Shown: positions 13,906 to 57,462 of the stretch, in pieces
Layout: each line of letters opens with the position of its first letter
Numbering within the stretch: position 1 is the stretch's first letter
Source of the DNA: a virus
Taxonomy: Duplodnaviria; Caudoviricetes
DNA length: 64,000 nt
Direction: 5' to 3' (one strand)
IMG/VR virus record: IMGVR_UViG_3300033463_000045
Location: 48,266 to 112,265 of that record
The notes under the pieces: generated by a model
The model's database searches: none
What the model saw: the letters and a program-made list of their open reading frames with translations, nothing else
Told to the model about the DNA's origin: nothing
Program-made: the position numbers and the translations under genes

Positions 13906-14130
13906 ATGAATTTATATAGTAATATTAAAAATAATATTAATAGTGCAGATTCTAAGTATATGAAAGAATGGACAGAAATATGTGAAGCATTTTGTAAGAA
14001 GATAAATGCTGAACTATTATTTGTTAATCTTGATAACTTTGGTTATATGACTAAAGATGGTCAAACTATTCATATGTATGCTGATGAGCTTGCAGAATAT
14101 CTAAATAATAAAAATAAGAATAATCAGTAA
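13906..14130 (+). CDS. MNLY-leader family protein (putative internal head protein)
   Basis: MNLYSNIKNNIN; body is homologous to the C-terminus of 15502..16371. Confidence 0.65.
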   Translation: MNLYSNIKNNINSADSKYMKEWTEICEAFCKKINAELLFVNLDNFGYMTKDGQTIHMYADELAEYLNNKNKNNQ

Positions 14131-14172
14131 ACAATTTACTGATTATTTTCTTTATATAAGAGGAGATTATTT

Positions 14173-14418
14173 ATGAACTTATATGAAAGTATTGAAAAAA
14201 ATTTAAAAGAATCAGAAAAATCTTTGGAAGACAAATGTAAAGAAATATTTAATAAATATAGAGATGAATTTGATACTATAAATGATGTAAGAGATATTGC
14301 AGATTATTTAAATAAATTATATTCAGAAGAAGGAATACAAGCTGTAAATGATTGGTTCCTATCGAGTGCAACTGAAGAATACAAAAAAGATTTAAAATCT
14401 TTAATAAATAAAAAGTAG
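14173..14418 (+). CDS. MNLY-leader family protein
   Basis: MNLYESIEKNLKESE. Confidence 0.65.
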   Translation: MNLYESIEKNLKESEKSLEDKCKEIFNKYRDEFDTINDVRDIADYLNKLYSEEGIQAVNDWFLSSATEEYKKDLKSLINKK

Positions 14419-14432
14419 AAAGGAAAATAGAT

Positions 14433-14702
14433 ATGAACTTATATGAAAGTATTGAAAAAAATTTAAAAGAATCAGAACATTCTGATGATTATTGTACAAT
14501 AGCTGCTACAGAATTTGTTGTTGATAGATTACCAAGTGATTGGAAAAATTTATCTAATGACGAATTAAAAGAATTAGTAAGAGAAGAAGTAAATAATTAT
14601 AATAATGCTAATGTCGAACCTGAATATGAAAATGAAGATTTTTATGGTGATGAAGCAGATTATAATAAAGTATTTGATTATATAATATATAGTTATAAAT
14701 AG
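14433..14702 (+). CDS. MNLY-leader family protein, acidic
   Basis: MNLYESIEKNLKESE; first 45 nt identical to the previous gene. Confidence 0.65.
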   Translation: MNLYESIEKNLKESEHSDDYCTIAATEFVVDRLPSDWKNLSNDELKELVREEVNNYNNANVEPEYENEDFYGDEADYNKVFDYIIYSYK

Positions 14703-14716
14703 AAAGGAAGATTAAA

Positions 14717-54323: not shown

Positions 54324-55577
54324 ATGAATAATGAAGAAAGATTAGATGTTCCATCAATTATAGAGATGGAAGATAGAGTTACAGTTCTTGAAGGTGGAAC
54401 ACCTGAAGAAAGACCTAGCACTATTTATAAAAAAGAGCTTGATGATTTAAATGATAGAATCAATGTTCTTGAAGGTAAAGAACCTGAAGGACCTAAGAAT
54501 CCAATGAGATTAGCAGAATTAAAAGCATTTGATGAAAGAATAGATACTCTTGAAGAAGAGGAAAGTGATTCTGTTGTTGAATTTCCTAATGGTACTAAAA
54601 TAGTATTTGAATTAGAAGATTTCTGTACAGCATTAAAAGAAAAATTATCTGCTGATGATTTAAATAAATTAATAGACCGTAGTGAAGAATCAATATTCTT
54701 AAAAATAAAAGGACCTTCTGAAAATGACACAGTAGAATTTGAATTTACAGATGTAATGCCTAGACAATTTAAAATATCTAATACAAATAATGGTACTACT
54801 GGATTTATAGCACATGGTACTTGCGATTGTGATAATGGAGCGCATTTATATGAGGTTTTATTTGATTTAGCAAAACCTGAATTTGATGAAAATTATTATA
54901 TCTATAATGCGACAAAATTAACTTTATATGAAAAACCTCATGTAGAAATTATATTTGAAGATGGTACAACTAAAGAAGTAAAATTAGATTCAGCAGTATT
55001 ACCATTAACAGTTCTTGATTTAGATAATCCTAAAGTATTTGAAAAAGAAAGAGATATAATTTATAATAGCTCGTTTGATGACTTGCTTAAAGCATATCAA
55101 CCAGATTATGAAGACTTAGGAGTAACAGATGCATTACATAAAATATCATTTGATAAAAATACAGGTAGTCCATTCCTATTTATTCTTGGACCTGACTCTA
55201 ATGTTACATTAAGTAATGGTGTTCCAGTAGTTACTGGAGATGCCTCTATATCTATTGGTGTAGGTGAGGATGATGCACAGGATAGTGGAGTATATCTTAT
55301 TGAAGACTGGGATGGCACAGTAGCATCATATAGTGCTTATACTAAGCATTTATTAGGACACTATTCAAGCGGTGGAGATACAATTCCACATATATTAAGC
55401 TTTGGACTTATTCCTTCTGAAGAAGAAGTTATTCAACTAGTTAATGATGCTGTAATGTTTAATCCAGTAAAATTAGTATATGTATTAGAACAATGTGATG
55501 CATTACAATTAGCAGTAATTGATGTAAACTTTAGTGATGCTAATAAATTCCCTATTAAATATTATACTGAAGAATAA
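54324..55577 (+). CDS. Putative head/neck fibre or decoration protein, paralogue 1
   Basis: Three R-[IV]-x-x-L-E repeats; homologous to the next gene. Confidence 0.5.
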   Translation: MNNEERLDVPSIIEMEDRVTVLEGGTPEERPSTIYKKELDDLNDRINVLEGKEPEGPKNPMRLAELKAFDERIDTLEEEESDSVVEFPNGTKIVFELEDFCTALKEKLSADDLNKLIDRSEESIFLKIKGPSENDTVEFEFTDVMPRQFKISNTNNGTTGFIAHGTCDCDNGAHLYEVLFDLAKPEFDENYYIYNATKLTLYEKPHVEIIFEDGTTKEVKLDSAVLPLTVLDLDNPKVFEKERDIIYNSSFDDLLKAYQPDYEDLGVTDALHKISFDKNTGSPFLFILGPDSNVTLSNGVPVVTGDASISIGVGEDDAQDSGVYLIEDWDGTVASYSAYTKHLLGHYSSGGDTIPHILSFGLIPSEEEVIQLVNDAVMFNPVKLVYVLEQCDALQLAVIDVNFSDANKFPIKYYTEE

Positions 55578-55599
55578 TTAAATAGAAAGGAAAATAATT

Positions 55600-56361
55600 A
55601 TGAAAGAAGAAACTAAAAGATTAGATGTAGCAGAGCTACAAGATTTAGAAAAAAGAATTGATGTACTAGAAGGACAACCAGAAACTCCATTAGTATGTCC
55701 TATATTTAAATCAGACTTAGACGATATGAACGATAGAATAACTGTATTAGAGGGCGGTACAGCTCCTGGACCACAAAATCCAATGAGATTATCTGAATTA
55801 AGTTCTTTTGAAGGTAGAGTAGAAGAACTTGAAGATAAACCTCAAAAACCTCTTATGGTATTTGACGATGCATTTAAAACAAAATTTGCATCTTATTATG
55901 ATGAAGTAAAAGATGAAGGAAGCGACAAATATTTTAGATGGTTTGATGTTGCTACTAATACAGGTTGTCCAGCAATATTTGTTGTAGGACCGGATACAAC
56001 AGTAACAATATCTAATAATAAACCTGTAGTTAGTGGAGATAATCAAATTTCAGTAGGTTTTCTTGGTGAAACTGCTTATCTTATTGAAGATTGGGATGGA
56101 ACTAAATTACCTGACGCAACACTTTATCACGAACTTTGTACTTTATCAAGTGTTATAAGTCCAACATTTGAAAATATACTAAGTGCTACTTGGACAGCAA
56201 GTCAAGCATTTAAATTAGATACTGATATAACATTAACTGATTTATTTAATCCAGCTAAATTAATTGTTATTTGGGAAGATTGCGATGCACTATCAACATT
56301 TGAAATTGATTTTGACGATGAAGATGCAGATATATTCCCTATTAAAGAACAAACAGAATAG
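55600..56361 (+). CDS. Putative head/neck fibre or decoration protein, paralogue 2
   Basis: Shares N-terminal repeats and the NTG.P..GPD..YLIEDWDGT..FNP.KL domain. Confidence 0.5.
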   Translation: MKEETKRLDVAELQDLEKRIDVLEGQPETPLVCPIFKSDLDDMNDRITVLEGGTAPGPQNPMRLSELSSFEGRVEELEDKPQKPLMVFDDAFKTKFASYYDEVKDEGSDKYFRWFDVATNTGCPAIFVVGPDTTVTISNNKPVVSGDNQISVGFLGETAYLIEDWDGTKLPDATLYHELCTLSSVISPTFENILSATWTASQAFKLDTDITLTDLFNPAKLIVIWEDCDALSTFEIDFDDEDADIFPIKEQTE

Positions 56362-56369
56362 AGAATATA

Positions 56370-57029
56370 ATGAATATACAATATTTCGTTAGAACTACAG
56401 AAGATAGAGAATTTGATTATGATTTGGACTATGAAATATTGGTAGATACAGAACATAAAGCAGTTGATTCATTTATAGAAGCATTGTATTATATATCAGA
56501 TTTTGATGCAGTGCTTCTAGAAGATGATTTAGTTTTATGTAAAAATTTTAAAGAAGAAATAGAAAAAGTAATAATGCAATATCCAGATAAAATAATTAAT
56601 TTCTTTTCAGGACCAAGAAAATATTATTCAACACATTTTTCAGATTTCTTTGATTATAATCAATGCACATATTATCCTAAAGCAATTACTAAGAAACTTG
56701 CTGATGAGATGACAATATTACATAGTAAATACCCTAAAGCAAGGTCTTATAATTTTCTTGAAACAAAAGCATTAGTTAACTTAGGAATAAGTCATTTAGT
56801 ATATAGACCAACATTAGTTCAACATAAAGATGTAAAATCAATTCTTAATGATGGAGCAGAATTAAAAAGAATAACCCCATACTTTAAAGATTATATAGAT
56901 GAATTAGGTATTGCCTATGAAGATGCATTTAAATTAGAAAATAAAAAGAGATTAGATGAAATGGTTGAAAAAGATACGATAAAGTTTGAAAAAGAAATGA
57001 GAGGAGATATTAAAGATGAGTTTATATAG
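56370..57029 (+). CDS. Glycosyltransferase-like protein (GT-A fold)
   Basis: VLLEDDLVLC and PTLVQH motifs. Confidence 0.6.
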   Translation: MNIQYFVRTTEDREFDYDLDYEILVDTEHKAVDSFIEALYYISDFDAVLLEDDLVLCKNFKEEIEKVIMQYPDKIINFFSGPRKYYSTHFSDFFDYNQCTYYPKAITKKLADEMTILHSKYPKARSYNFLETKALVNLGISHLVYRPTLVQHKDVKSILNDGAELKRITPYFKDYIDELGIAYEDAFKLENKKRLDEMVEKDTIKFEKEMRGDIKDEFI

Positions 57030-57462
57030 TAATATTAAAAAGAACTTAAAAGAATCTGTAAAATATAAAGATTTAAATGATGATGCAAAAATTGAATTAT
57101 CAGAACGAGGAAGATGGACATGTTACTATTGTGACGAATGTGGTTCTTGTTTTAATGAATTAGATTCTAAAAATGTTGATTTGGAATCTTATTATGGCGT
57201 AGGAAGTGATTTTCCGGATACTCATTATGGAACATTTTATTATTGCCCTAATTGTGGTGCAGAATCTCCTCAAGAAGTAACATTATATTTTGAAGATTTA
57301 TTAGAAGAATATGTTAATGATAAAGCAAATGAAGAAAATATAATTAAAGAATTTAAAAAATACTATCCAGAAATAGATATAACTAATATGACCAATGAAG
57401 AAATTTTTGATAAATATATTGATGAGATATATGAAATGGTTAATGATTTAGGATTATATTAA
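57016..57462 (+). CDS. MNLY-leader family protein with zinc ribbon
   Basis: MSLYSNIKKNLKES; CDEC...CPNCG. Confidence 0.65.
   Translation: MSLYSNIKKNLKESVKYKDLNDDAKIELSERGRWTCYYCDECGSCFNELDSKNVDLESYYGVGSDFPDTHYGTFYYCPNCGAESPQEVTLYFEDLLEEYVNDKANEENIIKEFKKYYPEIDITNMTNEEIFDKYIDEIYEMVNDLGLY

Follow-up and report, generated by a model that had tools for sequence, protein, structure and literature searches.

Background

In phage T4 the internal proteins Ip1-3 and Alt carry a capsid-targeting sequence (CTS), a short N-terminal tag on otherwise unrelated, non-essential proteins that ends in a hydrophobic residue, any residue and Glu (PMC9026906, PMC3012670, PMC12373910, PMC8442874). The T4 CTS is MKTYQEFIAE (PMC8442874), and suppressor mutagenesis has assigned targeting to residues 4 and 7 and processing to residues 8 and 10 (PMC9026906, section 2.6). 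The S77 proteases of T4, phiKZ, 201phi2-1 and SPN3US recognise a short motif, cleave behind its Glu and also process their own C-terminal ends (PMC5694885); work on S77 proteases to date places their activity inside proheads (PMC5694885, PMC9026906). A similar tag is present in the genome described here, that of an uncultured Caudoviricetes phage from a metagenome (the 112,265-bp IMG/VR record IMGVR_UViG_3300033463_000045), whose final 64 kb (64,000 nucleotides) are called the window. A 13-residue leader, M-N-L-Y-x-x-I-x-x-N-L-[NK]-E, is found on 13 proteins of this genome. Sequence comparisons suggest that the leader is a capsid-targeting propeptide of the T4 CTS type which is processed by the prohead protease, a reading to which a probability of about 0.65 is given.

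Like T4, the phage encodes an S77 protease, a Gp23-type capsid protein with a multi-site propeptide (here with candidate cut sites) and a variable cargo repertoire that includes a predicted antirestriction function. Two invariant residues of the leader, Tyr4 and Ile7, appear to correspond to the targeting positions 4 and 7 of the T4 CTS (Tyr and Phe in T4), a match that is positional, and the helical hydrophobic moment is 0.44 for both peptides. Unlike the T4 CTS, the leader has three extra residues between the targeting and the cutting parts. The lineages are also distant, with the capsid protein scoring only 40 bits on Pfam Gp23 and the nearest named phage, a Thornevirus, at 30%, and the host here probably belongs to the Bacillota. 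There are 13-15 tagged members here compared with three in T4 and about ten families among T-even phages, and two of the members, unlike any in T4, are chains of modules with 979 and 1217 residues joined by predicted cut sites. The recognisable cargo is of the ArdA type, predicted to act on type I restriction, whereas that of T4 is a GmrSD inhibitor, and no Pfam or PHROG match to the Ip or Alt families was found when the cargo was compared with T4 Ip1, Ip2, Ip3 and Alt. The system is predicted to work like the Ip/CTS system of T4 but lies outside the Ip protein families.

The giant phages phiKZ, 201phi2-1 and SPN3US also have a protease of the gp21 family, with x-X-E cuts after Glu in portal, capsid and ejection proteins, and the paralogues gp53 and gp54 have an identical 15-residue N-terminus that was likened to a CTS by the authors (PMC5694885). 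Their propeptides are mostly longer than 100 residues with Ala, Ser or Gly at position P3, whereas P3 is Leu or Ile here (PMC5694885). Chains of shuffled modules, present here, have not been described in these giant phages, and at 112 kb this phage is not a jumbo phage. In phage P1 the antirestriction proteins of the Dar system (DarA, DarB, Hdf and DdrB) are incorporated into the head, processed and delivered with the DNA (PMC5512222, PMC9024508). Loading in P1 follows an ordered hierarchy of protein-protein interactions, in contrast to the shared short leader here, and the two systems are unrelated in sequence.

Extended polypeptides that string together small, mutually unrelated conflict domains, as found here, have been described as polyvalent proteins (Iyer, Burroughs, Anand, de Souza and Aravind 2017; PMC5512222). 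According to that survey, they contain 2-15 conflict domains per polypeptide and are thought to accompany the invading DNA into the cell, their domains being split apart once the chain has been made. The domain set named there includes ArdA and YodL, chiefly from Firmicutes; YodL is confined to polyvalent proteins of conjugative elements in that account, whereas here it is found on a leader-tagged phage protein. Polyvalent proteins commonly embed a zincin-like metallopeptidase (PMC5512222), while the separation proposed here is ascribed to the prohead protease acting on a fixed joint motif. No embedded peptidase, zincin-like or other, was detected in the 1217- and 979-residue chains at E-values up to 0.1-1. 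The passages of the survey retrieved by keyword hold no mention of separation by a prohead protease or of loading by a CTS-like leader, and neither cargo chains jointed by head-protease sites nor a CTS-tagged ArdA was found described in the literature.

Results

The initial annotation of the window listed 12 genes starting with MNLY or MSLY-x-x-I-x-x-N, and all 12 open reading frames (ORFs) were recovered with these starts, each with a Shine-Dalgarno site 6-9 nucleotides upstream. The 979-residue chain is a thirteenth member, encoded outside the window (genome positions 12479-15418) in a late operon near neck and tail genes. It had not been listed before, nor had degenerate members such as the gene at 61604 or the architecture of chained modules. 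A six-frame search with a regular expression showed the leader motif solely at these N-termini and in one internal copy (33681, inside the ORF 33447-34082). Tyr4 and Ile7 are invariant in 13 of 13 leaders, and in relatives position 4 is Tyr or Phe and position 7 is Ile, Val, Leu or Phe. Most leaders were said to continue L-[NK]-E-S; Leu11 and Glu13 are present in 9 of the 13 members and Ser14 in seven. Unbiased clustering of N-termini over the whole genome gave the leader group with its 13 members as the sole family of at least three, while the same clustering gave no such family in the control, Listeria phage LIS04 (181 kb, Thornevirus). The 13 leader proteins comprise 4,547 of the 35,202 coded residues, or 12.9% of the coding capacity. 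Their bodies had been described as mostly unrelated; BLASTP after removal of the leader accordingly gave two similarities only, between 13906 and the C-terminal module of 15502 (69% over 52 residues) and between 52671 and 31777, which have a module in common. A role as signal peptide or membrane anchor was ruled out, as the leader is hydrophilic and amphipathic.

The signal appears to lie at the level of the peptide. DNA upstream of the leader genes shows no conservation beyond the Shine-Dalgarno site. In relatives with a capsid protein only 32-35% identical, the core L-[YF]-E-[SN]-[IFY]-x-x-N-L-[NK]-E is retained despite synonymous changes (CTA or TTA, TCT or AGT, CTT or TTA) and is placed four codons further from the start, for example MSETRKLFESIQNNLKEE. 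Because the upstream DNA is unconserved and the core survives both synonymous changes and a shift in position, selection appears to act on the leader peptide. Within the genome the codons of the leader are more uniform than codon usage predicts, which may be due to common descent, gene conversion between leaders or a codon effect in the start region. The codon for Ile7 is ATT in 12 of 13 leaders compared with 46% genome-wide, and Asn2 is encoded by AAC in 4 of 12 compared with 4%.

Other N-terminal tags, ending LNE/S or LDE/N at residues 11-15 (the slash marks the predicted cut here and below), were seen in the relatives G002 (119877, 117091 and 119150) and G003 (11696, 8226 and 10426) and in P0203-P0228. 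These tags, which include MKTSVDIFKNLNE, MLNKLSYNLMNSLNE, MKSITKSLLESLNE, MSKFYYQLKCKLDE and MFKKLNESF, head long motif-rich proteins, and there appears to be a separate leader dialect for each phage group.

The gene at 34095-34913 had been called a gp21-like protease, and it scores 44.5 bits on Peptidase_S77 (cut-off 27) and matches phrog_207 with an E-value of 6e-41. Its motifs GECVHP and GISARG can be aligned to matching stretches of chain 5jbl of T4 gp21 and may contain the catalytic residues, by reference to His85 and Ser140 of T4 gp21. Candidate C-terminal self-cleavage sites, LTE/S and IKE/S, are located at residues 152-165, just past the catalytic domain. L11-x-E13 of the leader fits the cut-after-Glu rule of the S77 family. 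The gene at 57625-59010 encodes a Gp23-type major capsid protein according to Pfam (40.2 bits, cut-off 24.4). The N-terminal propeptide of this protein (nucleotides 57625-57813) has the sites LKE/G at residues 11-13, LKE/S at 32-34 and MNE/S at 61-63, where L11, K12, E13, G14, L32, K33, E34, S35 and E63 are invariant in 16 homologues with 63-100% identity. Likewise, the N-terminus of the portal protein (genome positions 30607-32466) reads ...INLNE/SQKLNE/A ahead of the conserved domain.

The motif [LI][NK]E[SA] was observed 18 times in the leader bodies (first 20 residues excluded), with 1.2 +/- 1.1 expected from shuffled sequences, and 16 times in eight head-module proteins, with 1.1 expected. 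The remaining 27.5 thousand residues contain nine copies, with 5.9 expected. The motif is enriched about 15-fold, and only in the leader proteins, the head-module proteins, the protease, the capsid propeptide and the portal N-terminus. A blind ranking of all proteins with a wider motif gave a genome total of 70 compared with 17.4 +/- 3.8 and placed the leader proteins, 29077, 30328, 61604, the protease, the capsid protein and the portal at the top. The excess was reproduced in three relatives but not in LIS04.

Two leader proteins are built as chains of about ten modules each, most of them unnamed, which are shuffled between homologues. The 1217-residue protein (16388-20041, pI 4.1) has about 11 internal [LIVC]xE/[SA] sites that would give fragments of about 60-255 residues; the 979-residue protein has about 14 sites, and the pieces of the two would be about 60-250 residues long. 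All close homologues of the 979-residue protein begin with the MNLY leader, and they have only single modules in common with it (7-25% coverage, 50-88% identity) in varied order. The borders of these alignments lie near LxE sites beyond chance, as only 53 of 10,000 random placements did equally well. The sole confident blocks in an AlphaFold2 (AF2) model of the 979-residue protein, residues 521-574 and 898-949, begin just past the sites at 514 and 896. Homologous chains contain a GNAT and a DUF7678.

The C-terminal 226 residues of the 1217-residue chain (nucleotides 19361-20038) form a module with matches to ArdA. Pfam ArdA (PF07275) alone gives 25.2 bits (cut-off 27; E-value 2.8e-5), while 27 of 31 homologues of the module match Pfam ArdA, with a best E-value of 1.3e-17. 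A profile of the module family matches PDB entry 2w82 (Tn916 Orf18) with an E-value of 2.6e-8. The AF2 model of the module has a mean predicted local distance difference test score (pLDDT) of 93.7, and Foldseek places 2w82 at ranks 1-2 with probability 1.00 and a TM-score of 0.5. Neither tblastn against plasmids and phages nor a single-sequence phmmer search of the PDB gave a match, so that ArdA was reached by the family profile only. Profile and model together assign this module to the ArdA family, with a predicted antirestriction function.

An exhaustive search gave 78 homologues of the ArdA module, in which the module is always C-terminal. Eleven leaderless homologues start 3-14 residues before the ArdA domain (M-x-DDI-x-V-YMNTW), nine of them without LxE at that place. 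Among homologues with an N-terminal prefix of 15-70 residues, LxE is found 7-14 residues ahead of the domain in 21 of 22, and the same spacing is seen in nearly all of 34 ArdA polyproteins. The predicted cleaved product therefore resembles a natural free-standing protein, because the leaderless forms start at a matching position. The second recognisable cargo is a YodL-like domain in the protein encoded at 33106 (Pfam PF14191, E-value 2.1e-10, 41.9 bits with a cut-off of 24, 95 of 98 profile positions). The ESM Atlas gave no usable match for 52671 and 31777.

The leader genes are arranged in three clusters and a single gene, as first annotated: cluster 1 stands alone, the second cluster adjoins the protease gene, and cluster 3 and the single gene lie upstream of the capsid gene. 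All features given here lie on the plus strand. Cluster 1 begins with the degenerate-leader gene at 12977-13390, preceded by a class-A-like promoter motif ACATAATATATAATAG (promoter classes are described below); its start MYKEIKSNLKE/T, noted before as a degenerate version, is the leader minus two residues. Then follow genes for proteins of 74 residues (13906-14130, MNLYSNIKNNINS, no LxE at residues 11-13), 81 residues (14173-14418, MNLYESIEKNLKE/SE) and 89 residues (14433-14702), the last with its initial 45 nucleotides identical to those of 14173. A 256-residue protein (14717-15487) is basic (pI 8.1), with CxxC...CxxC motifs and no LxE at 11-13. The 289-residue protein at 15502-16371 consists of three modules with internal LNE/SE and INE/SE sites, and the 1217-residue chain closes the cluster.

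Three head-module genes (28530, 29077 and 30328, together spanning 28530-31752) upstream of the protease have no MNLY leader and contain one, three and three [LI][NK]E[SA] sites, respectively; they are candidates for core or scaffold proteins. They are followed by leader genes for a basic protein of 437 residues (31777-33090, pI 9.3), with the first good site KLNE/S at residue 20, and for the 112-residue YodL-like protein (33106-33444), in which the domain covers residues 22-112 and FNE/A is located at residue 15. The neighbouring 211-residue gene (33447-34082) holds the internal leader copy NLYSMIKSNQKLNE/S (nucleotides 33681-33722). This copy lacks Met and is placed between an N-terminal phrog_3939 domain and an unrelated C-terminal body, so that the gene is either a gene fusion or has an internally working leader.

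Cluster 3 encodes proteins of 113 residues (51658-51999, MNLYKNIKTNLKEFQSLKE/S), 209 residues (52027-52656, MNLYESIRNNLNE/SE, internal site FNE/SEE) and 543 residues (52671-54302, internal sites LNE/AEE, LEE/AED and LNE/A). The single gene at 57016-57462 (148 residues, MSLYSNIKKNLKE/S) has zinc-ribbon-like Cys pairs and abuts the capsid gene on its upstream side. Just upstream of the tail sheath gene, an acidic protein of 495 residues (61604-63091) begins with the degenerate leader MKEKTLFGMLNDDYRE/S and has further LNE/S and LKE/S sites at residues 40-51; its orthologue in the relative G001 starts MNLYKALNDDYRE.

Three classes of promoter-like motifs were observed, and they look like an early, a middle and a late programme. 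About 17 copies of class A, TTTCATAATATATAATA, are located before replication and nucleotide-metabolism genes (in the window at, for example, 20104, 22459, 36074 and 44067). Class B, TTTTCATTAAATATAGATA, is found ahead of structural genes, of cluster 3 and of the operon with the 979-residue gene (for example 25839, 36494, 38071 and 51327); the copy at 51327-51346, TTTTCATTTAATATAGATA, is located ahead of the operon starting at 51368 that contains cluster 3, and is promoter-like by motif only. Class C, TGGTATAATATAAT, is of the extended -10 sigma-70 type and is found before a few other genes (for example 5330, 11700 and 48940).

The genome has a GC content of 25% and a single coding strand for all genes. 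The 127-bp "direct terminal repeat" of the record is an assembly overlap. A tail sheath gene of 495 residues bridges the junction of the record (window positions 63114-64000 joined to genome positions 1-728), and because it spans the joined ends the genome is a closed, complete circle of about 112.1 kb. The closest named phages are Listeria phage LIS04 and Bacillus phage SP-15 (Thornevirus), with a capsid identity of 28-30%, while many nearer relatives with a capsid identity of 63-97% are found in metagenomes. No near-identical DNA was found among known phages. Single-protein scans of IMG/VR with the protease and with the capsid protein gave no match, and an alignment-based scan was needed instead. 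An exact degenerate DNA pattern of the leader gave 0 matches in IMG/VR, a pattern that required N10-L11-[NK]-E13, which is often absent in relatives. A related 125-kb contig has been binned with a rumen Erysipelotrichaceae metagenome-assembled genome, a weak hint of a Bacillota host. A 98-residue protein just 3' of the capsid gene (59167-59463) has a weak PHROG match to the "sporulation protein" family phrog_35646 (E-value 7e-5), which hints in the same direction.

The capsid region also varies among relatives. Some capsid variants (P0010, P0016 and P0052 in alignment A1) have a C-terminal extension of 13-16 residues that ends in YNHGV, together with one or two insertions around residue 130. 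In G001 (L020; capsid 66% identical), an 826-residue methyltransferase-like gene and other inserts are found directly upstream of the capsid gene (32842-35322 of the reverse-complemented record). The site thus carries inserts in G001 and leader genes in this phage, and the gene order there is rearranged.

Discussion

The initial annotation proposed capsid targeting and gp21-type cleavage, and each prediction that could be tested in the sequence held, namely the invariant positions, the motif enrichment, the capsid propeptide, the module borders and the ArdA and YodL-like cargo. In the proposed mechanism the N-terminal half of the leader, with its aromatic residue 4 and aliphatic residue 7, would bind the assembling prohead core, and the tagged proteins would thereby be built into the prohead. 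The S77 protease would cut after Glu13 in L-x-E of the leader and would also cut [LI]-[NK]-E/[SA] in the capsid propeptide, the portal N-terminus, its own C-terminal tail and the neighbouring core proteins. Cutting at the joints of the 1217- and 979-residue proteins would free modules of about 60-250 residues inside the head, and these modules would remain with the DNA and enter the next host along with it. In that host at least some modules may counter defence, as an ArdA-type mimic of DNA would with type I restriction, or may target structures of the host, as might the YodL-like domain. Core binding, cleavage, retention in the head and injection are steps that we infer, and the phage probably loads a variable set of anti-defence proteins into its head and delivers them.

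Several observations weigh against this reading. Most of the cargo is strongly acidic (pI 4-5), whereas the internal proteins of T4 are basic. L-x-E at residues 11-13 is absent in 4 of 13 leaders (13906, 14717, 31777 and 33106), which have a later site (E15, E20, E21 or E27) or a poor one, and G001 retains it in just three of eight leaders. The 16 motif copies in the head-module proteins come from a set partly picked after the motif had been seen, which the blind ranking does not fully mend. The single-sequence AF2 model of the 979-residue protein, with a mean pLDDT of 38.5, is too poor for a test of linkers between modules. When leader proteins and their segments were searched against Pfam and PHROGs, only YodL and ArdA were recognised, and most bodies are without detectable function. 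Cluster 1 (12977-20041) is located behind a variant of class A, a class otherwise found before replication and not structural genes, and for this reason cluster 1 may be made before the head proteins. Finally, no scaffold of the gp22 type was recognised, and some leader proteins may therefore double as core material.

One alternative is that the leader proteins serve chiefly as scaffold or core, filling and shaping the prohead before they are chopped at LxE and expelled like gp22, gp67 and gp68 of T4, and are not effectors. Very acidic proteins with many cut sites are what T4 core proteins look like (PMC5694885), a recognisable scaffold gene was not found, and 61604, whose leader is degenerate, belongs to the conserved core genes of all relatives. 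An essential scaffold would not, however, be expected to show the almost complete cargo turnover seen when phages whose capsid proteins are 66% identical are compared. No role in assembly attaches to the ArdA and YodL-like modules, and the modules in general resemble small folded domains with Cys pairs and not coiled coils. As a general account this explanation is considered unlikely, though a scaffold or core role can be compatible with capsid targeting for some members. Alternatively, the LxE sites could be real and the leader not a packaging signal, either because cleavage of the chains takes place in the producing cell's cytoplasm or because the leader is an inactivating pro-sequence, with products that act late. 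The promoter class that cluster 1 has in common with replication genes fits such a scheme, as do the leaders without a cut site at 11-13. It is nevertheless improbable given that the S77 proteases studied work inside proheads (PMC5694885, PMC9026906), that Tyr4 and Ile7 match targeting and not processing positions of T4 (PMC9026906), and that antirestriction is useful at DNA entry and not late (PMC5512222).

The uniform codons of the leader and the 45 identical nucleotides in two adjacent genes could also indicate that the repeat is a nucleotide element, such as a translation-start or regulatory RNA site or the border of a recombination cassette, with a functionless peptide. Leader homology could indeed promote the exchange of cassettes, which is compatible with a role for the protein. 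A purely nucleotide function is very improbable when upstream DNA is unconserved past the Shine-Dalgarno site, when distant relatives keep the peptide through synonymous changes and four codons further from the start, and when LxE recurs deep inside proteins; a translation-start element was rejected on the synonymous changes, the shifted position, the unconserved upstream DNA and the internal copy at 33681. Codon identity does show common descent of the leaders, and two pairs of bodies are still related, as would be the case if the shared N-terminus were a remnant of duplication in fast-diverging paralogues with no present function. Yet the leader is near-invariant on bodies that have lost recognisable similarity to one another, it heads differing module sets in many metagenomic homologues, and it persists across capsid identities of 32-35%. 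Persistence over diverged bodies would therefore require strong selection on the leader alone, and a mere remnant is hardly credible.

Conclusions

A wider proposal, tentative and held at slightly less than an even chance, is that the prohead protease is the separating enzyme of a plug-in cargo system, in which any small domain behind a CTS-like leader or between [LI]-[NK]-E/[SA] joints would be packed, released and carried along with the DNA, and that the T4 CTS principle (an aromatic residue 4, a hydrophobic residue 7 and then hydrophobic-x-Glu) is ancient and wide across largely uncultured phages of the gp23/gp21 type, including those infecting Bacillota. If this is true, the leader and the joint motif would tag hundreds of unnamed injected anti-defence domains and would give a simple sequence rule for proteins delivered ahead of phage gene expression. 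Such proteins include antirestriction factors of T4 and are nearly unmapped beyond the T-even phages. This genome would add about 35-40 candidate delivered modules, all but two without an assigned function, and its metagenomic relatives many more in cassette-shuffled form. A head-maturation protease could then serve the polyvalent-protein strategy in place of an embedded peptidase, and a virion could be preloaded with ArdA, a protein familiar from conjugative elements. Cargo-loading experiments like those with the T4 CTS could also profit from a defined 13-residue tag in a phage of Gram-positive bacteria with low GC.

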